Positions 3,038 to 49,560 of a stretch of DNA of 64,000 bases are shown piece by piece. The DNA lies in contig JBPOJF010000013.1 in the NCBI GenBank assembly GCA_052033915.1, positions 78,400 to 142,399 on the forward strand, given 5' to 3'. The DNA comes from Lentisphaerota bacterium (GTDB lineage: Bacteria > Verrucomicrobiota > Kiritimatiellia > CAIQIC01 > JAGNIJ01). Below the pieces are notes generated by a model. That model ran no database searches. It was not told the origin of the DNA and saw only the letters and a list, made by a program, of their open reading frames with translations. How positions within the stretch are numbered: the stretch's first letter is position 1; every line of letters begins with the position of its first letter. Position numbers and translations under genes: made by a program.

Positions 3038-3046
3038 GGATCTGGA

Positions 3047-4591: not shown

Positions 4592-4637
4592 ATGAAAATT
4601 GAATCCTTGTCCGTCAGCTTATGGATGCGCCGGCAGT

Positions 4638-5882: not shown

Positions 5883-6934
5883 GACGATTCGTTCGGCGAT
5901 TTCGCCGCCTGAATGGCATCCAGAAAATCAACAACATGAGCTTCCTCGGGCCACATTCTCCCTTCATGCCACACCATCCGGCTGTCCCAGTGACCCGGGC
6001 ACGACTCGACCGCCCAGTTTGCGTAACAGTAGCTGATCTCGACAACAACCGGCATGTGTCCAGAACCTGCGTAGAGAAGGTCAAACGCCATGGATTGAGA
6101 ACCGAGCTTTTTCGCCGCACTGAAGGCAAGTTCGATGCATTGCGGGTCAATCTTCAAAGGATCCGGATCGATCACACCACTCCCCGAGGCCCTGAAGTCG
6201 TCCGGCCGATTCATTCGGCAAAAGCCAAACGCCCGATCCCCGACCACGGTGACGCGCGTGTCGAATGCATTGTCCGGCAAGAACTCCTGAAACAGCGCAT
6301 ATCCCCGCTGGGGCATCCAGAACTGCTTGGGCAAGGGCGGGTACTTCTTCCGCAGCATGTACCGGCCGCCCCAGATCAACCGCTGGGCAATGTCCTTCAC
6401 GATTCCACCCACCGTGGACTTGTCCGAATGCAGGCCGATGCCGATAATCCCCGCACGCGAGAACATCGACGCAATGTGTTCGCGACCCTCGCCGATATTC
6501 CGGATGAGCTTTACATTGTTCGATCCTGCGCCCATGGCGAGTTTCGCGACCACAGGATATGGCGCCGCTTCCGCCCATCGTTCAGCCTCCGCACGATCCC
6601 AGAAAATCCACGTCCTCGGCGTGGGAATGCCCAATGCCTGAAGCAGGTACGACTGGGAGATCTTGTCGTCGTAGTGCCATGCGGTACGAAGATCGGGAAA
6701 CACAGGAATCTTCATCTCCTTCTCGATGACGTAAAGGATCGGCCGCGCAGCCAGACGGACTTCGTGCGGGTAGTGCGCCCAATGCCACATCACGCCGTCG
6801 CACCCGCAAACGTCGTTAAGGGGGTCCGACCCCAGCAAGTTCAGCCATCGAAGAGAAACACCGCGATCGTGAAGGGTCTCGCCCCACCGGGCCGCAAAAC
6901 CCTCGCTGTCCTTGTGAATACCCACCGTGGTCAT
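5879..6934 (-). CDS. ATP-grasp domain protein (RimK/D-Ala-D-Ala-ligase-like) embedded in the glycan locus
   Basis: 'PVVAKLAMGAGSNNVKLIRN', 'ALFQEFLPDNAFDTRVTVVGDRAF' and 'MAFDLLYAGSGHMPVVVEISY' fit the ATP-grasp B/C subdomains. ATGA overlap with the upstream GT4. Confidence 0.6.
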   Translation of the reverse strand: MTTVGIHKDSEGFAARWGETLHDRGVSLRWLNLLGSDPLNDVCGCDGVMWHWAHYPHEVRLAARPILYVIEKEMKIPVFPDLRTAWHYDDKISQSYLLQALGIPTPRTWIFWDRAEAERWAEAAPYPVVAKLAMGAGSNNVKLIRNIGEGREHIASMFSRAGIIGIGLHSDKSTVGGIVKDIAQRLIWGGRYMLRKKYPPLPKQFWMPQRGYALFQEFLPDNAFDTRVTVVGDRAFGFCRMNRPDDFRASGSGVIDPDPLKIDPQCIELAFSAAKKLGSQSMAFDLLYAGSGHMPVVVEISYCYANWAVESCPGHWDSRMVWHEGRMWPEEAHVVDFLDAIQAAKSPNESS

Positions 6935-26269: not shown

Positions 26270-29200
26270 ATGAATCGATTTCTCTCTTTCTTCCTCATGG
26301 CTGTCTTGTGCGCGCTCGCCGGTTCCGCGCCCGCCGAAACCTATCGCGGCGAGATGAACTCCTGGGGCGCCAGTTGGATGGCGCAGGACACGGACTTCGG
26401 AAGCGTCTGGAAGGTCAGCGTGACCTCCGGCGCGGACGATACAACCTCCGAGTTCAAATTCGACCGCTTCGGCGATTGGGCGGAAAACTGGGGCGCCGGC
26501 AGCAGCGCGACAAAAAATTCGACAATCGGGTCTCTCGCTTCCGGCGGCGGCAACCTCAGCTTCAGCGCCCTCAACGCCAAACACTACAGCTTTACCATGA
26601 ACGCGGGACACACCTCCTACGTCGTGATGGAAACCGACAGCGACCCTGTATCCATTACGCGCGCGGACGTCCAGCTTGCGGACCCGTGGGCCGCGGGCGC
26701 GCCCGTCACGATCCAGCTCAGCGCGGCGAAGAGCCCGCAGGAGAACATCTGGATTCGCTACACGACGAATAGCTGGGCCTCCAGCCGATTAACCGCCGCG
26801 GCATCCGGAAGCTCCACGAACTATTCCGCGACGATCACCGCGAACGCCGGCTCCCGCGTGGAATACTACGCCCTGACCTCCACCATGCCGTCGAACCAGA
26901 TCGCGGCCGATCCCGACCTCTGCACGCTGCGCGGCAACAAGTCGGGCACGACGAATTACAGCTTCCGGTTCGGCGCCGGCAACGCATGGCACATTCCGGC
27001 AAACGCGGAACCCGTCGGCGCCACGATGCGCAACCCGCAGAGCCCCTATTCCCACAACGCGGTGTACATCTATAACGGCAACCAGTTCCAGGGCGGCGGC
27101 AACGCGGCCGACCAGTCGGGCGGCACACTGTACCACCGCCTCTCGGGCGCCGCCGGTTGGACCGCGACAAACCTCTCGTACGACAACCAGATCGATAACA
27201 ACAAGTACTGGAAGTCGGCCATCCCGGCAGGAACGTACGGGAAGACGAACGTCGTGGAGTATTACCTGTCCGTCACTTACACCGACCACAACACCACCTA
27301 CATCGGCACGACGAACGGCGGCATGTCGAGCGTAACGTATCTCGCGGCGAGCAACGCGCAGGCGCATCCGTTCTCGTTCACGATGGGCGGCGAGCCGGGC
27401 ACGGAAGCGGCGTACATCTGGCACAACACGAACCGCGTACATGTCGGCAGCGACGCCGTGCAGTGCTGGGCGAAGATCGGCTACGCGCAGGGGATCGGCA
27501 CGAACCGCTGGGTGGACGGCGCGGCGATCTACTACACGACGAACGGCGCGGAACCGTCCGGCGCCAACGGCATCCCCGGCGCGTCGTCGATGGTTCAGAT
27601 GATGAGCTTCGATCACATGGAAGAGGATCCATACGCGGACGGCGACGCGATGTGGTGGATGGGCACGCTGACGAACCTGCCGTCGGCCGACGGCAGCACG
27701 ATCAAGTACCGGATCGGCGCGTGGAAGTCGGGCGGCGTGGAGCGCTTCGCGGAGTACGGCACGACCGGACAGGACAACCAGACCTTCGTGTTCTCGCTCT
27801 TCGTGCCCGGCGCGGCCGGCCTCACCGTGAACGGCGTCAACGCCGACTACACGACCACCAAGTTCTTTATCGACGAGGCCGCGGGCGAAACACAGTACGT
27901 CACGGTCGTCTACACGCCCGAAGCCGGCGCCTCCAACGTGCAGGTCTTCTGCAATCTGAACCGCCGCGACTTGTGCGACGTGGATTACACCAACGCGCTC
28001 ATCGCGGGCGACGGCTACGCGGACGGCATCCGCCCGCCGGACGGCAATCTGCTCACGCCCGCGGACACCGGCGCGTATTTCACCGCGTTCGCGATGACCG
28101 GCGGTCCAACCACCTTCTACTGGACCGGCGCGGTCAGCCGCTGCGGCGCGTATCGCCTCACGACCCGCTACCAGAAGAACGCCGCGAGCGCGACGAACTG
28201 GAACTGGTACTCCTCCGGCGGCCTGCGCGATCACGCGATCGTCGTCTCGCCGAGGAAGGCGCTCGAGCAGACGATGTACGAGCTCAACACGCTGACGGTC
28301 GAGGCGACGGACAACTCCGAGGCGGGCCGCAGCACGTTCCAAGACCTGCTGGGCGCGGCCGACGGCGACACCGACGGCTACGACCCGTTCAATCTCGACT
28401 ACCTGAATTTCCTCCAGGTCAACTGCCTGTGGTTCCAGCCGATCCACCCGAACGCCGAGGAGCGGAAGGACTCGTACACGCCCGGCAGCCCGTACGCGAC
28501 GAAGAACTACTTCGCCGTCTCGAAGTACTACGGCGCCGACATGACCGAGGCGGGCGCAATGAGGGAGTTCACGAACTTCGTGGCGAAGTGCGACGCGTAC
28601 ACCGGAACGGTCGGCACCATCAACGTGATGCTCGACGGCGTGTTCAACCACACCTCGTGGGACGCGGTGTTCGGCGAGGGCGGTACGAACTTCAACTACT
28701 GCACGAACGTCAACGACCGCATCGGCTGGTTCAAGCCGGGCTGGTACGCGCTTTGGACGGACTACGGCCTGCCCGCGACGTACTATCACAGCGCGTACTC
28801 CAACGACATCGCCACCGCGCCGGACCGCGGCGATTTCGGCAAGTGGCCGGATGTGGCGGAGCTGTACTACGGAAAATATTCCGCGCTCGTGCGGCACAAC
28901 CCGGACAACAACGGCGACTACCTGAACGAGGGCGACGTGTACGACTTCGCCGGCATGACCGCCGCCAACGAGATGGACCTGTGGCGCTACATCGCCTACT
29001 ACACCGAGTTCTGGCTCAAGAAGACCGGCCACGCCGGCACCAACTCGTGGGTCGCCGCGCAGGACGACCGCGGCATCGACGGCCTGCGTTGCGACTTCGG
29101 CCAGGGCCTGCCGCCGCAGCTTTGGGAGTACATCATCAACCGCACGCGGCGCATAAAGTGGAACTTCATTTTCATGGCCGAGACGCTCGACGGCGGCAAA

Positions 29201-30766
29201 CCCGGCTACCGCTCGAACCGCCACTTCGACGTACTGAACGAAAACCTCGTCTTCAAGTTCACGCAGGAGCGAATCAACGACTCGGGAGCGCTGAGGCAGG
29301 CGCTCGAGGACCGGCGCACGGCGTACAGCGGCGGCGCGATCCTGCTGAACCTGACCTCGCACGACGAGATCCTGCCCGGCAACGACACCTGGATGGTCGC
29401 GTCGCGCTACGGCGCCGTGTCCGCCGTCGACGGCATCCCGATGATCTTCTACGGGCAGGAGCAGGGAATTCAGAACTGGGCGGGCGCGGTGACGAAGAAC
29501 ACGGGCTTCAAGACGCCGCACGAGGAGAACTTCGGCAAATACATCCCGCACTTCAAGCAGTGGAACCAGCTCACGGTCTGGACCCACACGCCCGACTACG
29601 GCGGCACGGATCTCGCGCAGTGGTACGGGCGCGTGAACTGGGCGCGGCACAACAGCGCCGCGCTCCGGAGCCGGAACCGCTGGTTCCTCAGCAAGGTCGG
29701 CGGCGGCGACGAGTCGCGCATCCTCGCCGTGGCGAAGTACCAGACGCCCTACGCCTCGCCGCGCACGAGCGACGTCGTGCTCGCGTTTGCGCTCCTGCTC
29801 CGCAACGACGAGGACACGCACGTCGGCGCGAGCGCGACGTACGACCTCAAGCCCGTATGGAACCTGCTTGGCCTCAGCACGTCCAAGTACTACAAAGCCC
29901 GCAACCTCGTTTCGAGCAACGCGCTCGCCGCCTACGTCTGGACAAACGTCTCCGGATCAACGCTTTACAACAGCGGCCTTTGGGTTTCTCTGAACGCCGG
30001 CACCTCCGCCCTGCCCATCACGGCCGACGGCGAGCTCGTGCAGTTCCTGAAGATCGAAGAGGATAACTTGGCGCCGGTGATCCACCTGCCGGGCCCGCAT
30101 ATTCTGCCGGTTGGAGCATCGACAAACTTCCCCGTCACGGCCGCCGATCCTGACGGAACCATTGTTACACTCACGAATACGGCCGTTCTTCCGGATGCCG
30201 TATTTGTCAACGGGGTTTTTTCGTGGACAGCAACGCCGGCGTTCGAGAACACCGCCCATCCTGTCGCGTTTGTCGCCACGGATGATCAGGGGCTCTCCGC
30301 GACGAACAGCACGACGATCACCGTCCCGTTCGACTGGAACGGAAACGGGATCGGCGACGGCTGGGAATGGACCCACTTCCAGAACCTGACCAACGCCGCG
30401 GCAAACGACAACGACGGCGACGGCGCGGGCAACTACGACGAGTACATCGCGGGCACGCAGCCGACGAACATCGGATCGGTGTTCAAGGTCATCTCCGTCT
30501 CCAGCGCAGACGGAACCTCAAGCCGCAACATTACGGTCTCCACGGAACCGGAGCGGCACTACTCGATCTACTTCGGCGACAGCGGCATGAGCAACAACAT
30601 GACGTGGTCCCCATTCGGCAATACGAACCTGGGCGTCGGCTCGTGGCTGGAGACCAGCCCGACATCGACCACGCACACCTTCACGGACGACGAGAGCACG
30701 AACACCACATCCTCCGCGCCCGCCTCCGGGCACCGGTTTTACCGGTTTAAAGTGCATAACCCCTAG
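26270..30766 (+). CDS. Giant secreted multidomain alpha-amylase-family (GH13-like) glycoside hydrolase
   Basis: Signal peptide 'MNRFLSFFLMAVLCALAGSAPA'. GH13-like regions I-IV: 'DGVFNHTS', 'GIDGLRCDFGQG', 'FIFMAETLDG', 'LLNLTSHDE'. C-terminal Ig/cadherin-like module, Ca-binding Asp-rich loops 'DWNGNGIGDGWEW' and 'NDNDGDGAGNYDEY', then a ~100-aa tail ending 'GHRFYRFKVHNP'. N-terminal Trp-rich ~100 aa may be a CBM. Confidence 0.7.
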   Translation: MNRFLSFFLMAVLCALAGSAPAETYRGEMNSWGASWMAQDTDFGSVWKVSVTSGADDTTSEFKFDRFGDWAENWGAGSSATKNSTIGSLASGGGNLSFSALNAKHYSFTMNAGHTSYVVMETDSDPVSITRADVQLADPWAAGAPVTIQLSAAKSPQENIWIRYTTNSWASSRLTAAASGSSTNYSATITANAGSRVEYYALTSTMPSNQIAADPDLCTLRGNKSGTTNYSFRFGAGNAWHIPANAEPVGATMRNPQSPYSHNAVYIYNGNQFQGGGNAADQSGGTLYHRLSGAAGWTATNLSYDNQIDNNKYWKSAIPAGTYGKTNVVEYYLSVTYTDHNTTYIGTTNGGMSSVTYLAASNAQAHPFSFTMGGEPGTEAAYIWHNTNRVHVGSDAVQCWAKIGYAQGIGTNRWVDGAAIYYTTNGAEPSGANGIPGASSMVQMMSFDHMEEDPYADGDAMWWMGTLTNLPSADGSTIKYRIGAWKSGGVERFAEYGTTGQDNQTFVFSLFVPGAAGLTVNGVNADYTTTKFFIDEAAGETQYVTVVYTPEAGASNVQVFCNLNRRDLCDVDYTNALIAGDGYADGIRPPDGNLLTPADTGAYFTAFAMTGGPTTFYWTGAVSRCGAYRLTTRYQKNAASATNWNWYSSGGLRDHAIVVSPRKALEQTMYELNTLTVEATDNSEAGRSTFQDLLGAADGDTDGYDPFNLDYLNFLQVNCLWFQPIHPNAEERKDSYTPGSPYATKNYFAVSKYYGADMTEAGAMREFTNFVAKCDAYTGTVGTINVMLDGVFNHTSWDAVFGEGGTNFNYCTNVNDRIGWFKPGWYALWTDYGLPATYYHSAYSNDIATAPDRGDFGKWPDVAELYYGKYSALVRHNPDNNGDYLNEGDVYDFAGMTAANEMDLWRYIAYYTEFWLKKTGHAGTNSWVAAQDDRGIDGLRCDFGQGLPPQLWEYIINRTRRIKWNFIFMAETLDGGKPGYRSNRHFDVLNENLVFKFTQERINDSGALRQALEDRRTAYSGGAILLNLTSHDEILPGNDTWMVASRYGAVSAVDGIPMIFYGQEQGIQNWAGAVTKNTGFKTPHEENFGKYIPHFKQWNQLTVWTHTPDYGGTDLAQWYGRVNWARHNSAALRSRNRWFLSKVGGGDESRILAVAKYQTPYASPRTSDVVLAFALLLRNDEDTHVGASATYDLKPVWNLLGLSTSKYYKARNLVSSNALAAYVWTNVSGSTLYNSGLWVSLNAGTSALPITADGELVQFLKIEEDNLAPVIHLPGPHILPVGASTNFPVTAADPDGTIVTLTNTAVLPDAVFVNGVFSWTATPAFENTAHPVAFVATDDQGLSATNSTTITVPFDWNGNGIGDGWEWTHFQNLTNAAANDNDGDGAGNYDEYIAGTQPTNIGSVFKVISVSSADGTSSRNITVSTEPERHYSIYFGDSGMSNNMTWSPFGNTNLGVGSWLETSPTSTTHTFTDDESTNTTSSAPASGHRFYRFKVHNP

Positions 30767-30924: not shown

Positions 30925-31383
30925 ATGATGTATTCGTCAGATCCCTGGTACATGAATATCCCCGTGTGGGCGGGTGTCGCCGCATGGTTCGTTGCCCAGT
31001 TCATCAAGCTGTTCATCCACTTTGTCCGTCACCGCAGTTTCGATTCGGCCTTTCTTCTCCGGCTGGGCGGCATGCCCAGTTCCCATTCCGCGGCCGTCAG
31101 CGCAGTCGCCACATCCATCGGCCTGATTTGCGGTTTTGGAAGCTCGATTTTTGCGGTGGCTTTCTGCCTTGCGGTCATTGTGATGATCGACGCTCAGACC
31201 GTGCGCCGGGCGGCCGGCCAGCAGGCCCGCCTCGTGAACCAGATTGTGGACGAGCTGTTCAAGACCCATCGGTTTCCCCAGCACAAGCTTGCGGAACTGC
31301 TCGGTCACACCCGGCTGGAGGTTCTTCTGGGAATGCTGCTCGGAATCGTGGCCGCCTTGCTGGTGCATTCTTTTGCCCCGTAG
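30925..31383 (+). CDS. Divergent PAP2 family membrane protein (YuiD/DUF212-like)
   Basis: 152 aa, 4 TM helices, 'GGMPSSHSAAVSAVATSIG' and 'DAQTVRRAAGQQARLVNQIV' motifs of the divergent PAP2 family. Confidence 0.65.
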   Translation: MMYSSDPWYMNIPVWAGVAAWFVAQFIKLFIHFVRHRSFDSAFLLRLGGMPSSHSAAVSAVATSIGLICGFGSSIFAVAFCLAVIVMIDAQTVRRAAGQQARLVNQIVDELFKTHRFPQHKLAELLGHTRLEVLLGMLLGIVAALLVHSFAP

Positions 31384-31393
31384 AGGTCCCCGT

Positions 31394-31810
31394 ATGAGCC
31401 CGCAACGATTTCCTTCGAGGAGGTCCGGCCTCGGACAGCGAAATACGCGTCAGCGCGACGTGATCCTCGGCGTCATTTGCTCCGCGCGCGGCCCATTAAC
31501 GGCGGCGGACATTCTTCCGCGGGCCGCAAAAAAAATCCGGGGAATCGGAATCGCAACGATCTACCGCACGATCAAACTGCTGCTCGAACAGAAGCGCATC
31601 AGCGCCGTGATCCTGCCCACGGGCGAGACCCGCTACGAACCGCACGGCCTCGATCACCATCATCACTTCCAGTGCACGCAATGCGGCCAGGTCTTCTGCA
31701 TGGATTTCTGTCCCTTCACCCAGTCCGGTTTCGCCCCACTCCCGCGAGGATTCCGGGTGGAGTCGCATTCGGTCACGACGTACGGAAAATGTCCGGGATG
31801 CGGGACGTAG
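31394..31810 (+). CDS. Fur family metal-responsive transcriptional regulator (Zur/Nur/Fur-like)
   Basis: 'RNTRQRDVILGVICSARGPLTAADIL...IGIATIYRTIKLLLEQ' wHTH, 'HHHHFQCTQCGQVFCMD ... CPGCG' Cys4 zinc-site motifs. Start is the internal M of track ORF 31244..31810. Confidence 0.8.
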   Translation: MSPQRFPSRRSGLGQRNTRQRDVILGVICSARGPLTAADILPRAAKKIRGIGIATIYRTIKLLLEQKRISAVILPTGETRYEPHGLDHHHHFQCTQCGQVFCMDFCPFTQSGFAPLPRGFRVESHSVTTYGKCPGCGT

Positions 31811-31839
31811 GAAGACGCGCGGGGCGCTTCCTGCCACCC

Positions 31840-32583
31840 TCAATGCGGGTGCGGATGTCGCAGGATGTGCGGCCGCTCCAGACCGTGGGCCCGCATCAGT
31901 TCCTCGTTGTCCAGCAATTCGGCGGTCGGCCCTTCCGCCATGATCTTTCCGCCGTCCATCACGATGACCCGCGGGCAGACTTCGACCACAAGCTCCAGAT
32001 CGTGCGTTGCAATGATCCGCGTATGCTCGAACGAGTGGAGCATCTCGATCAGCCTCCGGCGCCCGCGCGGGTCCAGGTTCGAGGACGGTTCATCCATGAC
32101 CAGGATGTCCGGCGACATCGCCAGCACGGTCGCGATCGACACCGCGCGCTTCTCGCCGGCGGAAAGCCTGTAGGGCGCGCGGTCCTTCACATGGCTCATG
32201 CCGACGCGCTCCAGCGCCGCGATCACCCTCTGCTGGACCTCGGCCTGTGGGAGGCCCGCATTAAGCGGCCCGAAGGCCACATCCTCGGCAACGGTGGGCA
32301 TGAACAACTGGTCGTCCGGATCCTGAAAAACCATGCCGACCGCGCGCCGGACCGTGGCCGTCGTCTCGGGCGTCAGCGGCGCGTCGCCGATGCGCACTTC
32401 GCCGCGGGTGGGCTTCAGGCAGCCGTTCAGGTGAAGCAGCAGGGTGGACTTCCCGGCGCCGTTCGCGCCGACCAGCGCGACCGCCTGCCCGCGCGCGATC
32501 CGGACCGAGACGCCTTTCAGCGCCTCCGTTCCATCGGGATACACGTGGCACAGGTCGCGCACTTCGACCATGGGATCGCTCAT
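31840..32583 (-). CDS. cbiO: ECF-type transporter ATPase (CbiO/EcfA), Ni/Co uptake
   Basis: Walker A 'GANGAGKST', signature 'LSAGEKRAVSIA', Walker B 'ILVMDEPSSNLD'. ATGA overlap with cbiQ. Confidence 0.8.
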   Translation of the reverse strand: MSDPMVEVRDLCHVYPDGTEALKGVSVRIARGQAVALVGANGAGKSTLLLHLNGCLKPTRGEVRIGDAPLTPETTATVRRAVGMVFQDPDDQLFMPTVAEDVAFGPLNAGLPQAEVQQRVIAALERVGMSHVKDRAPYRLSAGEKRAVSIATVLAMSPDILVMDEPSSNLDPRGRRRLIEMLHSFEHTRIIATHDLELVVEVCPRVIVMDGGKIMAEGPTAELLDNEELMRAHGLERPHILRHPHPH

Positions 32584-33386
32584 GACAGACCTCCCGTGAA
32601 CCAGCGGCCCAGCAGATCGGCAAGATTCCATGTCCGCGCCGCGGCGAAGAACACCGTCCACCCGAGCACGAACGCCGCATCCGCCCGACCTGCGGGTGTC
32701 GGGTCAAGGACGCGGATTTCCCCAGCGAAACCGCGCGACATCATCGCGCGATAGACGCGATCCGCGCGAGCCATCGAACGCAGAAGCAGGTGGCCCACGG
32801 CTGAGCCGTACACGCGCAGCGGGACGGCGGCCGAGCCGGCGGCGCGAATCTGCATGCCGCGCCGCATCCGCGAACCTTCAGCCGCGACGACGAACAGATA
32901 GCGGTAAAGGAACAACAGTTGGACGACGAACACGCGGGGCAGACCCATCCGCTCCAGCCCGGCGCATAAACGATTCATGCCCGTACACGCCACGAGAACG
33001 AGCGCCGCGCTCACCGTCAGGACGAAGCGGACGAGGATGGAGGCGAACGAGAACCAACCTCCGGTGACGACCCGCCCGCCGATGGCCGCGACAGGCTCGC
33101 GGTCCAGGAATGGATTGAACATCCCGATCACGACGGCGAACGGCGCAGCGATGAGAATCTTCCGGAGCAGATACCCTGACGGGATCCGCCCCAGCGACAT
33201 GAGCGCGAGGGGGTAGACAAAAAACGGCATCAACGCGGACACTTCGTAGCGCGGGAACGACATCACAAATACGATGAAGAGGAGGGTGGTGACCGCCTTG
33301 GCCCGCGCATCGAGCCGGTGCAAAGGCGTATCCAACCGGCCCAACTCATCCATACGGCCGATTTCGATCCATTCTCCAGGACTCAA
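32580..33386 (-). CDS. cbiQ: ECF transporter transmembrane (T) component CbiQ
   Basis: ~250 aa, 5-6 TM helices, 'LDARAKAVTTLLFIVFVM' and 'RRGMQIRAAG' (conserved R-rich cytoplasmic loop of EcfT/CbiQ). Confidence 0.75.
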   Translation of the reverse strand: MSPGEWIEIGRMDELGRLDTPLHRLDARAKAVTTLLFIVFVMSFPRYEVSALMPFFVYPLALMSLGRIPSGYLLRKILIAAPFAVVIGMFNPFLDREPVAAIGGRVVTGGWFSFASILVRFVLTVSAALVLVACTGMNRLCAGLERMGLPRVFVVQLLFLYRYLFVVAAEGSRMRRGMQIRAAGSAAVPLRVYGSAVGHLLLRSMARADRVYRAMMSRGFAGEIRVLDPTPAGRADAAFVLGWTVFFAAARTWNLADLLGRWFTGGLS

Positions 33387-33453
33387 GGGTTCCGCCTTGT
33401 TTCCGACAAGAATCCGCGCGGTTTCCGAGTCTCATCCATCGCTCGCCGACCGT

Positions 33454-34536
33454 CTATGACTCCCCAGAACCCATGATCACACTTTGCGAAGTGTGATCAT
33501 GCCTGTCCCTCGGCGCTTGACCCCGCTTCAACACCCAGCCGACCGCGCACGCCAACATCAGCGTGATCGCACCACCCACGAGTCCCGACACGGAAGTCCC
33601 CGCGCTCACCGCGGGCCAGGAGGCCGCCTGCTCCTCCGACTCGGCTGCCTCGGCGCTCGATTTGAATCCGTAGTCCGGCAGAAACGCCGTTTTCTCCTGC
33701 ACCGATGAGAGTTCCTTGTGCACTCCGCTCTCCGAACCAGAGACCTCCTCCGTTCCGATGACCTTCGCGATCGACCACTCCAGTCCGTCAGGATGCGTTG
33801 AGGCGAACCAACTGGCGACTCCGCCCACAACCACCGCGGCAATCAGCAGGCCGATCAGGACCGGCCGCAAGCTGACGCGCGTCCCCGCAGCCGCTTCCGC
33901 GGCCGGCAAAGCCTCCGGCCGCGCGCGGGCAACAAACGAGACGACAACCGCCGTGGCCAGGCCCTCGACAATTCCGATCGCCAGGTGAATGGGCGACATC
34001 AGCAGGACAAACACGCCGAACGGCAACGCCGTAATCCCGGATGCTTTGGTCTCGAGCACGACGCTGAACGCTCCGAGTTGGAGCCCCACGACCGCGGCAA
34101 CGATTGCCGCCACCCATGCGCGCGGCGTTCCGTGCTGATCCTTCGTGATCGCCCGGTAGACAAAGGGATACGCGACGAACGCGGGGTAAAACCCAAGGTT
34201 GAAGATATTGCAGCCCAGCGCCAGCAAACCGCCATCCGCGAAGAACAGCGCCTGCACCGTCAGCACCGAGGCAATCACCAGGAATGCCGCGTACGGCCCC
34301 AGCAGGATCGCCAGGATCAGCCCGCCGCCGAGATGGCCGCTCGAACCCGCGCCCGGAATCGTGAAGTTGATCATCTGCGCGGCGAAGATGAACGCGCCGA
34401 GCACGCCCATCATCGGAACCAGGTTATCGCGCATCGTCAGCCGCACTTTCCGCGCGCAATACGCGATCAACCCCGCGCTCGCGGCCCACATCGTCCCGCC
34501 CACGGCGGGGGAAATTAAAGCATCGGCCATGTGCAT
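33454..34536 (-). CDS. cbiMN: Fused CbiM-CbiN (NikMN-like) Ni/Co ECF substrate-capture component
   Basis: Starts 'MHMADALIS' (CbiM N-terminal MH motif that coordinates the metal), 7 TM CbiM core, C-terminal CbiN-like two-TM extension. The track ORF's first 114 aa are an artefact. Confidence 0.75.
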   Translation of the reverse strand: MHMADALISPAVGGTMWAASAGLIAYCARKVRLTMRDNLVPMMGVLGAFIFAAQMINFTIPGAGSSGHLGGGLILAILLGPYAAFLVIASVLTVQALFFADGGLLALGCNIFNLGFYPAFVAYPFVYRAITKDQHGTPRAWVAAIVAAVVGLQLGAFSVVLETKASGITALPFGVFVLLMSPIHLAIGIVEGLATAVVVSFVARARPEALPAAEAAAGTRVSLRPVLIGLLIAAVVVGGVASWFASTHPDGLEWSIAKVIGTEEVSGSESGVHKELSSVQEKTAFLPDYGFKSSAEAAESEEQAASWPAVSAGTSVSGLVGGAITLMLACAVGWVLKRGQAPRDRHDHTSQSVIMGSGES

Positions 34537-34538
34537 GT

Positions 34539-35318
34539 CTATTTCCCTCCAAACGTCCACTTCAGGCCGGCTGTCGCTGTGAAATCCGGCGCATCGCCCT
34601 CGATTTTCGATCCGCCCGCCACGTCGAGAACCAGATCCTCGACCACATCCCAGCGGAAGCCCGTGTTGTACTGCACCACAGTGTCCGCGCCGTCCGTCAG
34701 TTCCTTCTCGGCGAACACTTCGCCCACCCATTGCACGGCATCCGTCAACTGGTAGTCCAGCGCGACGCCGTAGTGAACCACATCGTGGACTTTTTCGTCG
34801 TCCGGCTCGCCGATCCACGAGTAGCCGGCGTTCACGTGAACGCCCGCCTTTTCCCCGAACGCCCGCGACGCCGCCCACATCAGGTCGTAGTCGGTCTCGC
34901 CGCTGCCCAGTCCTTTATCTTCGTCCGCCGTCGGAAACTTGACCGAGGGGACCAGCGCGTGCCGCGCGCCGAGTGGGCACTCCTCGAGGAACTGCCACTT
35001 GGCGTTGATCACGAGATCGCCGACCCCGCTTTCCCTGTGACGCTTCTTCGCACCGCTCTCAAGCGCCTCGTCTCGTTCCTCGAACTGTCCGCCGAAGCCT
35101 ACGCCCACGGCAAGGCCGGGCAGAACCCCGTACCCCAGCCCGACCGGGAAATCCCAATGGTCGCAATCCGAATCCCCGCCGTACACGGCCCCGGCCTCGA
35201 TCTCGAACCGGCCGGTATCCACCGGGTCCGCATCGTCAATCGTCAACGGCCTCGCGGCAAACGCCGCCCCCGCCGTCATCAGGCTCAGCGCCAAAATCGC
35301 CTCTTTGCAGATTCTCAT
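34539..35318 (-). CDS. Outer-membrane channel-like protein ('MetA-pathway/phenol-degradation-like' OM transporter family) inside the Ni uptake operon
   Basis: Signal peptide 'MRICKEAILALSLMTAGAAFA', amphipathic beta-strands, 'FEIEAGAVYGG...GLGYGVLPGLAVGVGFGGQF'. Confidence 0.5.
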   Translation of the reverse strand: MRICKEAILALSLMTAGAAFAARPLTIDDADPVDTGRFEIEAGAVYGGDSDCDHWDFPVGLGYGVLPGLAVGVGFGGQFEERDEALESGAKKRHRESGVGDLVINAKWQFLEECPLGARHALVPSVKFPTADEDKGLGSGETDYDLMWAASRAFGEKAGVHVNAGYSWIGEPDDEKVHDVVHYGVALDYQLTDAVQWVGEVFAEKELTDGADTVVQYNTGFRWDVVEDLVLDVAGGSKIEGDAPDFTATAGLKWTFGGK

Positions 35319-35320
35319 CT

Positions 35321-35758
35321 TCAGAACTCCTTTCCTGTTGTCGTGACCGTGAGTTTCCCGTGCTTCACTCCTTTGACAGCAATCAATCCGTCCGCCAGCT
35401 TCCGCACCGCCGGCGCCTTCCCGCGCACCGCCAGGACTTCCATGCAGTTGTGGTGGTCGAGGTGGATGTGAAGGACCGAGATGATCAGCCCCTCGTGGTC
35501 GTGCTGGATGTCGGTCAGCTTCGCCTGCAGGTCGCGCTTGTGATGGTCATAGACCAGCGTGATCGTGCCCGCGATCTCGCCCCCGCCCACCTCCGCCCAG
35601 TGCTCGACCAGCCGCGCACGGACCATGTCCGCCAGCGCCTGCGAGCGGTTGGCGTACCCCTTCTTCTTCGACATGGCGTCCAACTGACCCACCAGATCGC
35701 CGGCCATCGAGACGCTGAAACGAACTACCGGGTGTGCGTTCATGGTGTTACCTTTCAA
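35321..35758 (-). CDS. nikR: Nickel-responsive regulator NikR (RHH + ACT-like metal-binding domain)
   Basis: N-terminal ribbon-helix-helix 'VVRFSVSMAGDLVGQLDAM', C-terminal high-affinity Ni site 'HIHLDHHNC' (H-x-H ... H ... C). Confidence 0.8.
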   Translation of the reverse strand: MKGNTMNAHPVVRFSVSMAGDLVGQLDAMSKKKGYANRSQALADMVRARLVEHWAEVGGGEIAGTITLVYDHHKRDLQAKLTDIQHDHEGLIISVLHIHLDHHNCMEVLAVRGKAPAVRKLADGLIAVKGVKHGKLTVTTTGKEF

Positions 35759-35923
35759 GATTTTCGTAACCTTGCAACTCTTTAACCCGCTGTCAAGGCC
35801 GATGCAGGATACCGTATGCGCGCGCGGAGTTCGTCCTCATTTTCCGTATTCCGCGACATCTTCGTGGGACCACAGAGTCGCAAGGCGCAGGCCGCGCGTC
35901 TTCACCTCAAGACGAGATGATCA

Positions 35924-35954
35924 TTGACACAACAACCCACATCATCAATATATA
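35924..35954 (+). promoter_or_regulatory. Sigma70-like promoter (TTGACA - 17/19 nt - AATATA/TATATA) driving the riboswitch-nrdDG-dcd transcript
   Basis: Seen directly in an AT-rich patch ~50 nt upstream of the riboswitch. Confidence 0.35.
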
Positions 35955-35999
35955 GTGTAGTTCTTTAGATAGATCACAACAGATTGTAGGTTTGTGACG

Positions 36000-36292
36000 T
36001 GGACAAGTGCCCCCGCTCATGCGGGGGAGAATAGGGAATCGGGTGTGAATCCCGAGCGGTAGCGCCGCTGTGACGAGTGACGAACGCTTCATCAAGCCAC
36101 TGCTTCTTCGAGCGGTAAGGCGAAGCCAGTAGGAAGATCTCGAAGCCAGAAGACCTGCTTGTTCGCGCTCATCCGGTCCGGCGGCCTGAAGTCGCCGGCA
36201 ACTGTCTCGCCGAAGACAGGATGAGGGAAGAGACGAGCTTGACCCGTTGCCCGGCCCGCCTTCACTCCCTCGCGAGTGGTGGCGGTTTTTTC
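36000..36292 (+). promoter_or_regulatory. Cobalamin (B12) riboswitch with intrinsic-terminator expression platform
   Basis: Conserved blocks in the correct order: 'AGGGAA', 'GGTGTGAATCC', 'GCGGTAGCGCC', B12-box 'AAGCCACTGC', 'GCGGTAAGGCGAAGCC', 'CCAGAAGACCTGC'. Followed by the hairpin CCCGCCTTCACTCC...GAGTGGTGGCGG + TTTTTT at 36256..36292, 84 nt before the nrdD ATG. Confidence 0.7.
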
Positions 36293-36375
36293 TGTCCGTA
36301 CGCTGCGCGCGAGTGGTTTCCCTCAAGACGAACAAGCGGCTGGTTGCCGCAGAAACAGAGAGGAGACCGCTCGAC

Positions 36376-38541
36376 ATGCTTCACGAACGTTCCGACAGTT
36401 CGATCCCGCAGATTCAAAACACGCTGTCGCTGGCCGTCCGAAAACGGGATGGTCGCGTTGTGGCCTTCGACTCAGAGCGTATTCGACTCGCCATCGCCGC
36501 CGCCTTCAAGGCGGACCAAGGACTGACTCTCAACCAGCGCCTGCCAATCGACGCCGACACCGCCGTAGTTCAGATCACCGACGCGGTGGTGCAGTCTCTC
36601 GCCGCGCGATCCGCCAACGACGAGGCGCTGGAGATCGAGTCCATTCAAGACCTGGTCGAGAAACATCTCATGCAGTCGGGCCATCACCGCGTGGCCAAGC
36701 GCTACATCCTCTACCGGGAAGAGCGGCGAAAAGCGCGCTTCGCGCGCGACCTGGGCGAACCGCTGGTCGCCACGGTCACATCGATCGACGAGTACCTGAG
36801 CGCGGCCGACTGGCGGGTCAACGCCAACGCGAACCAAGGCTACTCCCTGGGCGGGTTGATCCTCAACATCTCGGGAAAAGTCACCGCCAATTACTGGTTG
36901 AATCACCTCTACGGCGGAGACATCGAACGCGCGCATCGGGACGGCGATTTCCATATCCACGACCTCGACATGCTGGCCGGCTACTGCGCCGGCTGGTCCC
37001 TGCGCCGGCTCCTGTTGGAAGGGCTCAACGGTGTGCCCAACAAGATCGAAGCGGCGCCGCCGAAGCACCTGAGAACCGCGCTGGGGCAGATGGTCAATTT
37101 CCTTGGAACCCTTCAGAACGAATGGGCCGGGGCGCAAGCGTTCAGTTCGGTGGACACCTATCTGGCGCCGTTCGTTCGCCGGGACGGGCTGACCTACGCC
37201 GAGGTGCGGCAGTGCTTCCAGGAGTTCGTCTACAACCTGAACGTCCCGTCGCGATGGGGAACGCAGACGCCGTTCACCAATCTGACTTTTGACTGGATGT
37301 GCCCCGCCGATCTGCGCGAGCAGCAGCCCGTCATTGCGGGCGAGTTGATGCCTTTCCTCTACGGCGACCTGCAGAAGGAGATGGACGACATCAATCGCGC
37401 GTTCCTCGAAGTGATGAACGCGGGCGACACCAAGGGCCGCATTTTCACCTTCCCGATTCCCACGTACAACATGACGGAGGATTTCGATTGGGAACATCCG
37501 AATACGGACCTTCTTTTTGAGATCACCGCGAAGTACGGCCTTCCGTATTTCCAGAACTTCGTCAACTCGGAGCTGAAACCGGGCATGGTGCGCTCCATGT
37601 GCTGCCGCCTGCAACTGGATCTGCGCGAACTCCTGAAGCGCGGCAATGGTCTTTTCGGCTCCGCCGAGCAGACCGGTTCGGTCGGCGTGGTCACGGTGAA
37701 CTGCGCCCGGCTGGGGTACCGGTTCAAGGGCGATTCGCAGGGACTGTTCGCCGAGTTGGATCGGCTGCTGGAACTGGCCAAGCGAAGCCTGGAGGTCAAG
37801 CGGCAAGTCATTGAGGAACGCATGAAGTCCGGTTTGTATCCGTTCACGCGCCGTTACCTCGGCACGCTTCGTAATCACTTCAGCACAATCGGAGTGAACG
37901 GCCTGAACGAATGCGTCCGCAATTTCACCGGCGATCGGGACGACATCTCCACACCGGAGGGGATCGCGCTCAGCCTCCGCATTCTGGACCACATCCGCGG
38001 CCGGCTGATCGGATACCAGCAGGAGACGGGACACCTCTACAACCTCGAAGCGACGCCGGCCGAGGGCGCGACCTATCGCTTTGCGCGGGAAGATCGCAAA
38101 CGCTTCCCCCGGATTCTCCAGGCGGGCGCCGAAGAGGCCCCGTACTACACGAACTCCTCCCAGTTGCCGGTCGGCCACACCGATGATCCGTTCTTCGCGC
38201 TGCAGCATCAGGAAGCGCTCCAACAGCGCTACACCGGCGGAACCGTCTTCCACCTCTACATGGGCGAACGGATCTCCAGCGCGCGCGCCTGCAAGGAGCT
38301 GGTTCGTCGCGCGATCACCCGGTTCCGCATTCCCTATATCACGGTGACCCCGACCTTCTCGATCTGCCCGCAGCATGGCTACCTGACCGGGGAACACGCC
38401 TTCTGCCCGAAATGCACCGATCACAAACAAGCCTGCGAAGTCTGGACGCGCGTGATGGGCTACTACCGTCCGGTCTCGCAATTCAACAGGGGCAAGCAGA
38501 GCGAATTCAAAGAGCGCCTGTTCTTTGCCGAGGCACCCTGA
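36376..38541 (+). CDS. nrdD: Anaerobic ribonucleoside-triphosphate reductase (class III RNR)
   Basis: 721 aa. C-terminal Zn-ribbon 'CPQHGY...CPKC' and glycyl-radical motif 'RVMGYYRPV'. Start is the internal M with an AGGAGA RBS. Confidence 0.85.
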   Translation: MLHERSDSSIPQIQNTLSLAVRKRDGRVVAFDSERIRLAIAAAFKADQGLTLNQRLPIDADTAVVQITDAVVQSLAARSANDEALEIESIQDLVEKHLMQSGHHRVAKRYILYREERRKARFARDLGEPLVATVTSIDEYLSAADWRVNANANQGYSLGGLILNISGKVTANYWLNHLYGGDIERAHRDGDFHIHDLDMLAGYCAGWSLRRLLLEGLNGVPNKIEAAPPKHLRTALGQMVNFLGTLQNEWAGAQAFSSVDTYLAPFVRRDGLTYAEVRQCFQEFVYNLNVPSRWGTQTPFTNLTFDWMCPADLREQQPVIAGELMPFLYGDLQKEMDDINRAFLEVMNAGDTKGRIFTFPIPTYNMTEDFDWEHPNTDLLFEITAKYGLPYFQNFVNSELKPGMVRSMCCRLQLDLRELLKRGNGLFGSAEQTGSVGVVTVNCARLGYRFKGDSQGLFAELDRLLELAKRSLEVKRQVIEERMKSGLYPFTRRYLGTLRNHFSTIGVNGLNECVRNFTGDRDDISTPEGIALSLRILDHIRGRLIGYQQETGHLYNLEATPAEGATYRFAREDRKRFPRILQAGAEEAPYYTNSSQLPVGHTDDPFFALQHQEALQQRYTGGTVFHLYMGERISSARACKELVRRAITRFRIPYITVTPTFSICPQHGYLTGEHAFCPKCTDHKQACEVWTRVMGYYRPVSQFNRGKQSEFKERLFFAEAP

Positions 38542-48463: not shown

Positions 48464-48489
48464 GTGTTACGTATTTATAGTTTCGTAAC
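48464..48489. promoter_or_regulatory. Inverted repeat TGTTACG-N12-CGTAACA (plus a direct TTATAGT repeat), ~30 nt upstream of the secreted-protein gene
   Basis: Seen directly in the divergent intergenic region. Confidence 0.3.
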
Positions 48490-48590
48490 ATCTCACATCC
48501 GCGCGATGGTGTCAACTCTCCGATCGGGCGGCTCCGCCCGCTCCCGGAACATGCGCTCAGGTTCCTGTTGAACCGGATCGCCCGATTGTG

Positions 48591-48612
48591 TATTGATAAT
48601 GCATTATCAATA
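48591..48612. promoter_or_regulatory. Fur/Zur-box-like perfect palindrome TATTGATAATGCATTATCAATA
   Basis: 22-bp perfect palindrome matching the Fur-box core GATAATGATAATCATTATC, 40 nt upstream of znuA (+) and ~150 nt upstream of the divergent minus-strand operon. Confidence 0.55.
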
Positions 48613-48651: not shown

Positions 48652-49560
48652 ATGAGGAAACGATGCGCATGGCTGCTGGCGGCATGGCTCGCGGGGCCGG
48701 CGGGGGCCGCGGAGGACCCGTTCCGGATCGTCACCTCGTTCTACCCGATTCACATCGCCGTTCTGAACGTGGCGCGAAACATCCCCGGCGTCGAAGTGAT
48801 CAACCTGACCCCTCCCGTCACCGGCTGCCTTCACGAGTACTCGATGACGCCGCAGGACCTCCGGACGCTGGCCCGGGCGGACGCGTTCGTGGTCAACGGG
48901 CTGGGCATGGAATCCTTCCTGGACGAGGCGGTGAAGCGCCTGCCGCGCCTGCGTGTCATCGACGCCAGTCGCGGCATCGAGCCCCTGGACGACAATCCCC
49001 ATGTCTGGGTCAGCGTCACGCTGGCCATCCAGCAGGTGCGGACCATCGCCGACGCCCTCGAGGAGTTCGACCCGGACCACGCAGAGCGCTATCGCGCGAA
49101 CGCGGACGCCTACATCGCGCAGTTGGACGCCCTGCGCCGAAAAATGCGTGAAGGATTGGACGGCGTGAAGAACCGCCACATCGTCACGCTCCACGAAGCC
49201 TTCCCGTACTTCGCGCAGGAGTTCGGCCTGCGCGTCATCGCCGTGATCGAGCGCGAGCCCGGCTCGGAGCCCGGCGCGCGCGAGCTGGCGCAAACGATCG
49301 ACCTCGTCAGGCAAACGGGCGCGCCCGCCCTGTTTGCCGAACCGCAATACCCGGCCAAGGCGATCGATACCATCGCCGCGGAAACCGGCGCGAAGGTGTA
49401 CACACTGGACCCGGCCGTGACCGGCCCGATGGAGCCGGGAGCGTATGTGGGGATCATGGAAACGAATTTGGAGACGTTGATAGCGGCGTTGAAGGAAGAA
49501 CCCCGTCCAAGGACCGAAGTCGAAAGTCCCAAGCAACCAACCTTGGACATGGGACTTTAG
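48652..49560 (+). CDS. znuA: Zinc/manganese ABC transporter substrate-binding protein (ZnuA/TroA family)
   Basis: Signal peptide, metal-site motifs 'GCLHEYSMTPQD', 'DDNPHVWVSV', 'TLHEAFPYFAQEF'. The last ~18 codons are encoded by a copy of the dispersed repeat. Confidence 0.8.
   Translation: MRKRCAWLLAAWLAGPAGAAEDPFRIVTSFYPIHIAVLNVARNIPGVEVINLTPPVTGCLHEYSMTPQDLRTLARADAFVVNGLGMESFLDEAVKRLPRLRVIDASRGIEPLDDNPHVWVSVTLAIQQVRTIADALEEFDPDHAERYRANADAYIAQLDALRRKMREGLDGVKNRHIVTLHEAFPYFAQEFGLRVIAVIEREPGSEPGARELAQTIDLVRQTGAPALFAEPQYPAKAIDTIAAETGAKVYTLDPAVTGPMEPGAYVGIMETNLETLIAALKEEPRPRTEVESPKQPTLDMGL

Follow-up and report, generated by a model that had tools for sequence, protein, structure and literature searches.

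A predicted NikR-regulated nickel importer operon with a putative TonB-independent outer-membrane channel in a PVC-group bacterium

The passage of free nickel, and of transition-metal ions in general, across the outer membrane is still poorly understood; for nickel and cobalt, reviews list no routes other than non-specific general porins and a small number of TonB-dependent receptors. Does a nickel operon ever bring its own outer-membrane channel? The question is raised by a locus within a 64,000-nt stretch of DNA (the window) from a bacterium of the PVC group, whose nearest MAGs are labelled Lentisphaerae, Verrucomicrobiota and Kiritimatiellae. On the minus strand, the gene order is nikR, a gene for a 259-aa β-barrel (omp), nik(MN), nikQ and nikO, and a Fur-family gene converges on the tail of this array. 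All six genes named in a preliminary description of the locus are present at the coordinates given in Table 1. We propose that nikR-omp-nik(MN)-nikQ-nikO is a nickel-acquisition operon in which the barrel supplies a TonB-independent outer-membrane step, a reading to which we assign a probability of roughly 65%. Judged from the sequences, the importer itself is of a known kind, whereas the barrel would represent a novel, nickel-associated form within an established family of outer-membrane channels, its function being putative.

The five minus-strand genes had been described as tightly packed throughout, which holds for three of the four junctions: 2 nt separate nikR from omp and omp from nik(MN), and nikQ and nikO share an ATGA overlap. 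The exception is nik(MN)-nikQ, where the spacing is 67 nt from the TTG start at 33386 or 100 nt from the ATG start at 33353, the gene call with the latter giving a product of 257 aa. Similarly, the start of nikR was placed at TTG 35758, but ATG 35743 is the most likely start because the operator and a GAAAGG ribosome-binding site occupy positions 35745-35772.

Table 1. Features of the nickel locus and of the second NikR-type box (positions in the window)
Feature	Position	Strand	Basis
nikR, Ni-responsive ribbon-helix-helix repressor, 140 aa	35321-35743	-	PF08753, NF003381
Outer-membrane beta-barrel (omp), 259 aa, COG4313/PF13557, proposed Ni channel	34539-35318	-	PF13557 and AF2 model
nik(MN), NikM fused to PDGLE, ECF substrate-capture component, 360 aa	33454-34536	-	PF01891, PF13190
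nikQ/cbiQ, ECF transmembrane (T) component	32580-33386	-	PF02361, TIGR02454
nikO/cbiO, ECF ATPase, 247 aa from ATG 32583	31840-32583	-	PF00005, TIGR01166
Fur-family regulator, 138 aa, two CxxC pairs, HHHH motif	31394-31810	+	PF01475
Candidate NikR operator	35745-35772	.	GTTAC-N14-GTAAC core, consensus match
Second NikR-type box, GTGTTACGTATTTATAGTTTCGTAACAT	48464-48491	.	same core

The nik(MN) product starts with MHMADALISP and matches PF01891 (198.9 bits) and the PDGLE family PF13190 (113.9 bits), whereas CbiN models reach just 19-29 bits against cutoffs of 115-238. Thus, the original name 'cbiMN' is correct for the fused M component but not for the 'N' part, which is PDGLE in the position of NikN, as in the natural Nik(MN) fusion. 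The nikQ product scores 100 bits with PF02361 and 125.9 bits with TIGR02454 (cutoff 111.8), and the nikO product 113.7 bits with PF00005 and 218.4 bits with the cbiO model TIGR01166 (cutoff 211.8). Dedicated T (CbiQ) and A (CbiO) components are therefore encoded in the same operon as the S component. The best solved relative of NikM is TtNikM2 (4M58, 83.7 bits, versus 28.1 bits for RcCbiM, 5X3X). Met1, His2 and His68 (equivalent to His67), as well as the Gln, His and Glu residues of the hydrogen-bond network, align with those of TtNikM2, in which the roles of the metal-site residues have been described (PMC3945884). NikM binds the bare ion via four nitrogens, and its ligands are common to NikM and CbiM, such that nickel and cobalt are not discriminated by these residues (PMC3945884). 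The shared ligands, the word 'cobalt' in the Pfam and NCBIfam names and a cobalamin riboswitch located 230 nt from nikR would all be compatible with a cobalt (CbiMNQO) or mixed nickel/cobalt importer, with the barrel serving cobalt. We regard this as quite improbable, given that the riboswitch, the only one found, lies on the opposite strand and serves nrdD, leaving the nik genes outside B12-riboswitch control. The operon is instead headed by NikR and a NikR box, the auxiliary component is of the nickel type (PDGLE, not CbiN), NikM is much closer to TtNikM2 than to RcCbiM, and relatives of the barrel have CooT and HupE/UreJ as neighbours.

The nikR product matches PF08753 (120.7 bits) and the equivalog model NF003381 (182.7 bits versus a cutoff of 105), and aligns over its full length with NikR of Pyrococcus horikoshii (2BJ1, 141.9 bits), in line with the NikR architecture of an N-terminal ribbon-helix-helix domain followed by an ACT-like nickel-binding domain at the C-terminus. 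The HxHx5C metal site is kept, HIHLDHHNC aligning with HVHMDEHNC of PhNikR, and in the region of the upstream histidine QHDH is aligned to QHEY. These positions (H-x-H-x5-C plus the upstream His) we take to be the high-affinity ligands, as in E. coli NikR. NikR proteins bind a dyad of 27-28 bp in promoters of nickel-uptake genes. A candidate operator near the nikR start, for which the preliminary description had suggested a search, was found: the dyad, AGGTTAC-N14-GTAACAC in the minus-strand reading, ends 2 nt before the nikR ATG and covers the ribosome-binding site. It matches the published NikR consensus, GTGTTAC-N13/14-GTAACAC (PMC545781), with two mismatches at the outer positions of one half-site. 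Two copies of the perfect core GTTAC-N14-GTAAC are present in the window, where the expected number is 0.01; the degenerate 7-N14-7 pattern at 2 mismatches is on its own unenriched there (4 found versus 2.2 expected). Equivalent boxes abut nikR in four related loci (L008, L020, L043 and L049). No sigma-70-type promoter was detected, which we count against the proposed reading. The second box, which the preliminary description of this locus does not mention, precedes by 26 nt an operon on the minus strand that encodes another metal transporter, of the ABC-3 type, and probably marks a second member of the same NikR regulon.

The operator, HxHx5C in NikR and Met1-His2/His68 in NikM bear out the initial proposal of a nickel-responsive, autoregulated ECF importer. 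That the nik operon encodes a nickel-repressed, autoregulated importer of a known, ordinary type is well supported by these sequence features. By analogy with E. coli NikR, at high nickel Ni-NikR would bind the dyad abutting its own start codon and shut off the whole unit, including nikR, and at low nickel the operon would be expressed. By sequence, the inner-membrane step is that of a standard group-I ECF importer: Met1-His2 at the N-terminus of NikM, along with His68, would capture the bare ion with the help of the PDGLE/NikN domain fused to NikM, and uptake would be energised by NikQ/NikO. The same four modules (NikM with the MH N-terminus and His67, a fused N component, Q and O) are found in NikR-regulated Nik(MN)QO importers, including Geobacter/Desulfovibrio nikMNQO, Rhodobacter capsulatus Nik(MN)QO and T. 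tengcongensis NikM2, which also share the repressor and essentially the same operator consensus. Unlike in these systems, the operon described here belongs to a PVC-group host, has nikR as its first gene and carries between nikR and nik(MN) the barrel gene, itself a conserved NikR-box target.

The barrel protein belongs to PF13557, as had been suspected (64.7 bits versus a gathering cutoff of 22), and its precomputed annotation lists PF27733 and PF13557. It starts with a signal peptide ending in AFA, followed by a conserved ARPLxIDDADP segment. By DSSP, the AF2 model (pLDDT 81) has 13 strand elements and does not resolve exactly 12. In Foldseek searches, this model matched FapF (5O67, E 1.7e-12, TM about 0.7) and a COG4313 channel (4RL8, E 2.6e-8, TM 0.71), and the predicted fold appears to correspond to the 12-stranded barrels of FapF and Pput2725. 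Conserved polar residues in the alignment are E80, R82, E84, H161, N163, H182 and D188, and strand alternation in the alignment and the model suggests that they face the lumen. No TonB-dependent receptor domain (PF07715 or PF00593) was matched in this protein, which has 259 aa rather than ~700 aa. In common with COG4313/PF13557 channels (Pput2725, TcpY, SphA) and FapF, the barrel carries a segment ahead of strand 1 at its N-terminus, and its FPT-x-D and GSG loops form a conserved cluster. It differs from them in being shorter (about 238 mature residues versus 270-320), in its invariant acidic and histidine residues, in the RPLxIDDADP N-terminus and in the additional subfamily model PF27733. 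Its genomic partners are also different, namely metal importers and metalloregulators rather than genes for aromatic or sphingosine catabolism.

The preliminary description named a lack of recurrent linkage to cbiMNQO/nikR in other genomes as grounds for refutation; the opposite was clearly found. We compared 46 loci from PVC MAGs that encode close homologues, with identities of 47-89% over the best tblastn segment; all are MAGs of one superphylum, so some of the following counts reflect shared ancestry. In 37 of them, nikM starts no more than 300 nt after the barrel gene (38 if the divergent CbiM of L015 is counted). The nikR gene is directly upstream of the barrel gene in 29/46 loci, and seven more end at a contig edge. 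Boxes were searched for with the pattern GT[AG][AT][TC]AC-N13/14-GT[AG][AT][TC]AC, allowing at most one mismatch. Such a box precedes the barrel gene or the adjacent nikR in 34 of 44 loci, whereas elsewhere in 520 kb there are only six sites, three of them 387-400 nt upstream of a barrel gene. The box is kept at nikR-barrel pairs without ECF genes (L011, L021, L042) and at a solitary barrel gene (L045), suggesting from the sequences that the barrel is a NikR-regulon member irrespective of its co-transcription with ECF genes. The idea of a dedicated nickel channel, put forward in the preliminary description, is thus strengthened by the position directly upstream of nikM, by boxes before a solitary barrel gene and by relatives beside other nickel transporters. 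More distant arrangements are HupE/UreJ-barrel (L063), barrel-CbiM(-PDGLE) (L065, L066), barrel-CbiM-PDGLE-NikR (L071) and CooT-CbiM followed by a single PDGLE::barrel ORF (L070); in-frame PDGLE::barrel fusions occur in two clusters. In L067, a PF13557 relative closes a fur-feoAAB operon, FeoAB being a partner in single loci. These distant cases (L063-L071) argue against confinement of the barrel-nik adjacency to one recent clade. No paper on a link between this barrel and nickel was found in the literature covered, to which Rodionov et al. 2006 (J Bacteriol) does not belong.

The barrel might still be a passenger without a role in metal uptake, such as a general envelope protein that stays beside the nik genes by lineage descent. 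The origin of all close homologues from one superphylum would fit this explanation, as would the more distant PF13557 loci L053-L062 and L064, in which no metal genes were found nearby. It is nevertheless very improbable, since NikR boxes precede the barrel gene even when it is solitary or paired with nikR alone, the barrel is fused in frame to PDGLE, and it stays while the partner transporter changes between ECF types (35-39% versus 75-92% NikM identity) and HupE/UreJ. A further possibility is that the barrel acts in nickel acquisition, but that what it passes or exports is a nickel chelate or an amphipathic nickelophore instead of the free ion. So far, the substrates associated with the COG4313 family have been hydrophobic. 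Pput2725, the only COG4313 channel studied both structurally and functionally, conducts ions poorly, and its authors favour hydrophobic substrates and lateral diffusion (PMC4493636), a precedent for hydrophobic or amphipathic cargo; the best structural match, FapF, is a peptide-secretion channel. However, the barrel adjoins NikM, a binder of the bare ion, HupE/UreJ or, in single loci, FeoAB, the operon has no genes for metallophore synthesis or periplasmic binding proteins, and the conserved barrel residues are acidic or histidine rather than hydrophobic. Thus, a chelate or nickelophore as the substrate seems unlikely, although it is less easily dismissed than the passenger or the cobalt explanation. 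According to the reading that we favour, the barrel would pass Ni2+, and perhaps also Co2+, into the periplasm by diffusion and without TonB. The acidic N-terminal RPLxIDDADP segment is a candidate selectivity filter, as are the seven putative lumen-facing residues.

The Fur-family gene was initially taken for a second regulator at the operon tail. Its convergent position, 29 nt from the nikO stop, stands, but it is the second gene of a separate plus-strand DUF212-fur operon, the two genes being 10 nt apart, and a Fur gene lies within 8 kb of the barrel gene in just 3 of 46 loci, of which two belong to the closest relatives. On the grounds of strand and linkage, we rejected it as part of the nik system. 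The product matches PF01475 (73 bits) and has the Cys4 structural site of the family, in that CTQC and CPGC line up with the two CxxC motifs in Fur proteins of solved structure. All NCBIfam subclass models remained far below their cutoffs (PerR, the best, 50 bits versus 200), and the scores of its PDB matches fall within 40-53 bits for Fur, Zur, Nur and PerR alike, making the protein equidistant from them. It could be imagined as a Nur-like second nickel sensor co-regulating the nik operon from its tail, considering its proximity to nikO and the presence of Streptomyces coelicolor Nur (3EYY) among these matches, but the Nur score of 44 bits is no better than the others and the nik promoter region contains no Fur-type palindrome. 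Together with the sporadic linkage and the pairing with DUF212, this leaves the Nur-like assignment without support and the probability of such co-regulation very small. In L019, a homologue with 41% identity lies divergent to znuACB. A unique Fur-type palindrome (48593-48610) precedes a znuA-like gene in the same intergenic region as the second NikR box; on these two grounds, a Zur-like role unrelated to nickel is weakly favoured.

Other outer-membrane metal routes offer partial parallels. TonB-dependent nickel receptors (FrpB4/FecA3 of H. pylori, NikH of H. mustelae) likewise represent a NikR-controlled outer-membrane step. Unlike them, the 259-aa barrel has neither a Plug domain nor a 22-strand barrel, and the unit lacks TonB/ExbBD genes; therefore, transport would be passive. 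The barrel may thus take the place of TonB-dependent receptors, as first suggested. Closer in concept is MnoP of Bradyrhizobium japonicum, a Mn2+-selective outer-membrane channel induced by manganese limitation: it is a metalloregulated, TonB-independent, metal-specific channel feeding a high-affinity inner-membrane importer, although its metal and regulator differ. In Geobacter/Desulfuromonas, hypothetical porins with a Fur box in front of their genes adjoin feoAB (Rodionov et al. 2004). They are likewise predicted metal-regulon porins beside an inner-membrane ion importer, but their families are different (PF07396-like, PF04966) and their regulon is that of iron.

The linkage of the barrel to nickel points to an undescribed TonB-independent nickel route across the outer membrane. 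The barrel is a conserved NikR-regulon member in dozens of genomes and is found alongside nickel importers of three different kinds, which makes it a concrete candidate, and one that is easy to test, for a passive channel dedicated to nickel. Some members of a family that now carries the annotations 'phenol MetA-pathway' or 'hydrophobic-compound channel' would thereby be relabelled, improving the annotation of PVC-group genomes, and a handle would be gained on the supply of nickel to hydrogenases, CODH and urease in anaerobic communities. More tentatively, and with somewhat less than even confidence, we suggest that the ~250-aa 'GRPLxTDDAG' clade of COG4313/PF13557 (partly PF27733) comprises widespread, unrecognised TonB-independent outer-membrane channels specific for metal cations, with each sub-clade tied to its own metal regulon and importer. 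For nickel these would be NikR and either NikMNQO or HupE/UreJ, and for ferrous iron Fur and FeoAB. If so, the window would hold the nickel archetype of this clade, and many anaerobes would control and select the transition-metal ions that pass their outer membrane instead of relying on leakage through general porins.

The nickel-uptake locus consists of five minus-strand genes read in one direction, nikR-omp-nik(MN)-nikQ-nikO, as recovered by ORF listing and profile searches (see the table). The preliminary description had all five tightly packed. This holds for nikR-omp (TGA-ag-ATG), omp-nik(MN) (TAG-ac-ATG) and nikQ-nikO (ATGA overlap) and fails between nik(MN) and nikQ, where the gap is 67–100 nt depending on the choice of start. 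The "cbiMN" call was likewise half right: the CbiM/NikM part stands, but the C-terminal fused part is a PDGLE domain and not CbiN, as in the Nik(MN) fusion that occurs naturally in Rhodobacter. DNA of the locus is also present on two public assembly contigs, and among genome bins an uncultured Lentisphaerae MAG is closest (89% identity in the outer-membrane protein, 98% in NikR).

Features of the nickel-uptake region, its surroundings and selected loci in other genomes (L handles, loci with barrel homologues; P handles, distant barrel relatives)
Feature	Sequence	Position	Strand	Match or context
nikR	window	35321-35743	-	NF003381 182.7 bits, cutoff 105
Outer-membrane protein (omp), 259 aa	window	34539-35318	-	PF13557 64.7 bits
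CbiM/NikM + PDGLE fusion, 360 aa	window	33454-34536	-	PF01891 198.9 bits, PF13190 113.9 bits
cbiQ/nikQ	window	32580-33386	-	TIGR02454 125.9 bits, cutoff 111.8
cbiO/nikO	window	31840-32583	-	TIGR01166 218.4 bits, cutoff 211.8
NikR box, first	window	35745-35772		AGGTTAC-N14-GTAACAC
Cobalamin riboswitch	window	35988-36176	+	RF00174, 117 bits, E 1e-29
nrdD	window	36247-38541		class III ribonucleotide reductase
Fur-family gene	window	31394-31810	+	convergent on nikO, 29 nt between stops
DUF212 (divergent PAP2) gene	window	30925-31383	+	10 nt before Fur-family gene
Secreted protein, 1498 aa	window	26270-30766	+	upstream of DUF212
NikR box, second	window	48464-48491		GTGTTACGTATTTATAGTTTCGTAACAT
Operon behind second NikR box	window	48438-44178	-	
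Fur-type palindrome, 18 bp	window	48593-48610		TTGATAATGCATTATCAA
znuA-like gene	window	48652-49560		ABC ATPase gene next
Small ORF	L035	7702-7866		
Small ORF	L046	7640-7822		
P0140	L063			barrel after DUF4331 + HupE/UreJ nickel permease
P0212, P0284	L065, L066			barrel before CbiM(-PDGLE)
P0298	L071			order OMP-CbiM-PDGLE-NikR
P0299	L069	913-1965		single ORF, PDGLE + signal-peptide-like segment + PF13557 barrel, directly after cbiM
P0299	L070	1879-2931		as in L069; nickel chaperone gene cooT also upstream
P0353	L067, Smithellaceae MAG	1217-5774		barrel ends fur-feoA-feoA-feoB(-feoB-associated) operon
P0310	L068, Omnitrophota MAG	5001-6343		barrel directly before Fur gene
Dyad	L066	about 4920-4960		TAGTAGCAT-N13-ATGCTACTA
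Dyad	L071	about 4815-4850		GTAGCAT-N13-GTGTTAC

NikR aligns end to end with NikR of P. horikoshii (141.9 bits), HxHx5C metal motif included. The closest solved structure to NikM is TtNikM2 of T. tengcongensis (83.7 bits; R. capsulatus CbiM, 28.1 bits), and the alignment shows Met1, His2 and His68 (the His67 equivalent) retained together with the Gln, His and Glu of the hydrogen-bond network, residues whose roles have been described (PMC3945884). The NikR-Nik(MN)QO importer as such is a textbook system, already known. Directly 5' of the nikR ATG lies a dyad resembling the delta-proteobacterial NikR consensus GTGTTAC-N13/14-GTAACAC (PMC545781), in the region where an operator search had been suggested. 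In the 64 kb, 0.01 copies of the perfect core GTTAC-N14-GTAAC would be expected, and two are present. With up to two mismatches, the degenerate 7-N14-7 pattern shows no enrichment in the window (4 versus 2.2 expected), nor does its N13 version (2 versus 2.35); the significance of the box lies in the perfect core and in cross-genome conservation, not in the degenerate pattern. With nikR as its first gene, the unit is predicted to be autoregulated by NikR, and the dyad and the conserved metal ligands of NikR and NikM agree with the earlier picture of an autoregulated, nickel-responsive ECF importer. A sigma-70 promoter scan of 31200-36400 gave no match. The intergenic region containing the nikR promoter also harbors a cobalamin riboswitch. 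We rejected it as a mark of a cobalt transporter: it is located on the plus strand, opposite to the nik genes, and runs into nrdD, and is therefore uninformative on the cobalt specificity of the transporter. A B12-independent ribonucleotide reductase under B12 control is a known arrangement.

The second gene of the operon encodes a signal peptide ending in AGAAFA, followed by an invariant RPLxIDDADP segment. An AlphaFold model built from 17 homologues (pLDDT 81) contains 13 DSSP strand elements, and Foldseek searches with it retrieved FapF (E 1.7e-12, TM about 0.7) and the COG4313 channel Pput2725 (4RL8; E 2.6e-8, TM 0.71), each a 12-stranded barrel carrying a plug at its N terminus (PMC4493636). 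Profile match and modeled fold together identify the protein as a bona fide PF13557/COG4313 member, in line with the homology suggested before. Eleven Asp/Glu and two His are among its invariant residues; judging from strand alternation in alignment and model, E80/R82/E84, H161/N163 and H182/D188 probably point away from the hydrophobic (lipid) side.

Scanning one genome per species yielded 46 loci with a close barrel homologue (best tblastn segment 47–89% identical). Every one comes from a MAG that is PVC-group or unclassified, with the labels Kiritimatiellae, Lentisphaerae, Verrucomicrobiota or Pontiellaceae. Linkage to nik genes, on which the channel proposal depended, is recurrent: in 37 loci (38 if the divergent CbiM of L015 is counted) a nikM-like gene starts no more than 300 nt past the barrel gene, and nikR is directly upstream in 29, with seven more not assessable at contig ends. 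The usual partner is Nik(MN), 72–92% identical; in L015, L039, L043 and L046 it is another CbiM type (35–39%) with no fused PDGLE. Three genomes (L011, L021, L042) have nikR-omp alone, and in some loci the barrel gene is wholly alone. The box GT[AG][AT][TC]AC-N13/14-GT[AG][AT][TC]AC, allowing one mismatch, is present in 34 of the 44 assessable loci, either no more than 260 nt before the barrel gene or immediately ahead of the neighboring nikR, including nikR-omp pairs and the solitary barrel gene of L045. Elsewhere in 520 kb only six sites were found, three of them 387–400 nt upstream of a barrel gene with a small ORF intervening. ORFs of 54–60 aa between box and barrel gene are seen in L035, L046 and L036; the L035/L036 peptides (…GEVIITIHDSRVVQIEKREKK…) presumably resemble YezD/DUF2292-type small proteins, and that of L046 (…YSLRLTKNRKLILNK) we take to resemble HemP.

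When 1.84 billion representative proteins were searched with a profile, 92 clusters reached E<=1e-30 and 786 reached E<=1e-10. Several relatives neighbor other nickel importers (see the table), and a further cluster, P0293, was also called as a PDGLE + barrel fusion. Such a fusion, if real, implies that the barrel would be freed by signal-peptidase cleavage. The HupE, Feo and Fur links are represented by one locus each, and a metagenome scan with the HupE-linked P0140 alone added just one further nik-linked locus; L067 and L068 hint at iron-linked sub-clades. Upstream of the barrel gene in L065, L066 and L071 there is another dyad type, 7-N13-7, with perfect 9-bp arms in L066; the L066 and L071 dyads may represent a diverged class of NikR operator. 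No nik, feo, hupE, znu or fur gene neighbors the barrel in L064 or in the remotest PF13557 matches (L053-L062). Thus, metal association is clade-specific rather than family-wide.

A second NikR box, better than the first, is located 26 nt upstream of another operon. Its products are a 369-aa secreted protein without Pfam or NCBIfam match, a pseudopilin-like protein with an N-methyl domain, a binding protein weakly similar to ZnuA, and an ABC ATPase with an ABC-3 permease. The operon may encode another nickel-regulated metal importer with uncharacterized accessory proteins. Divergent from it is a znuA-like gene headed, 42 nt upstream, by a perfect Fur-type palindrome; no second copy exists in the window, including before DUF212-fur. 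The Fur-family gene had been placed at the tail of the nik operon. It is indeed convergent on nikO, but lies outside the nik transcription unit, in a plus-strand operon with DUF212; this pairing is repeated in the two closest relatives, L007 and L008, and of the 46 loci only 3, two being those relatives, have a Fur homologue at most 8 kb from the barrel gene. The secreted protein encoded upstream of DUF212 has only a weak alpha-amylase match in precomputed annotation. A Nur-like, nickel-sensing role for the Fur-family protein found no support: all NCBIfam subclass models score below their cutoffs, and solved Fur, Zur, Nur and PerR score alike (40–53 bits). A Zur-like protein is the better guess, at slightly under even odds, because a 41%-identical homologue in L019 is divergent to znuA-znuC-znuB, the window palindrome precedes a znuA-like gene and the L019 region carries a similar one, TGATAA-N4-GTATCA. 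The palindrome is a candidate target of the Fur-family protein, as proposed earlier.

Gene content, operator-like dyad, conserved metal ligands, modeled barrel fold, recurrent linkage and box conservation are shown by the data and frame the following scheme. By analogy with the E. coli paradigm, Ni-NikR would repress the nik unit; Ni2+, possibly Co2+, would pass passively through the barrel into the periplasm, NikM would then capture the ion, and ATP-driven import would follow. The main argument against free-ion passage comes from the family: Pput2725 is a poor ion conductor, with hydrophobic compounds as its proposed substrates (PMC4493636), which would fit a barrel passing a nickel chelate. 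We nevertheless prefer the free ion, since the partners handle ions as such, NikM by binding the bare ion and HupE/UreJ as an ion permease, and metallophore or binding-protein genes are absent beside the barrel.

For the outer-membrane nickel step, reviews mention only porins and TonB-dependent receptors, and searches combining COG4313, PF13557 or Phenol_MetA_deg with nickel returned nothing relevant in the literature covered, which did not reach Rodionov 2006. Within that literature, no paper describes a conserved position of such a barrel in the NikR regulon or next to various nickel importers. Recurrent nik linkage and NikR boxes, even where the barrel gene is solitary, make the protein a candidate nickel channel, and comparative genomics gives good support to its membership of the NikR regulon and to its association with several kinds of nickel importer.
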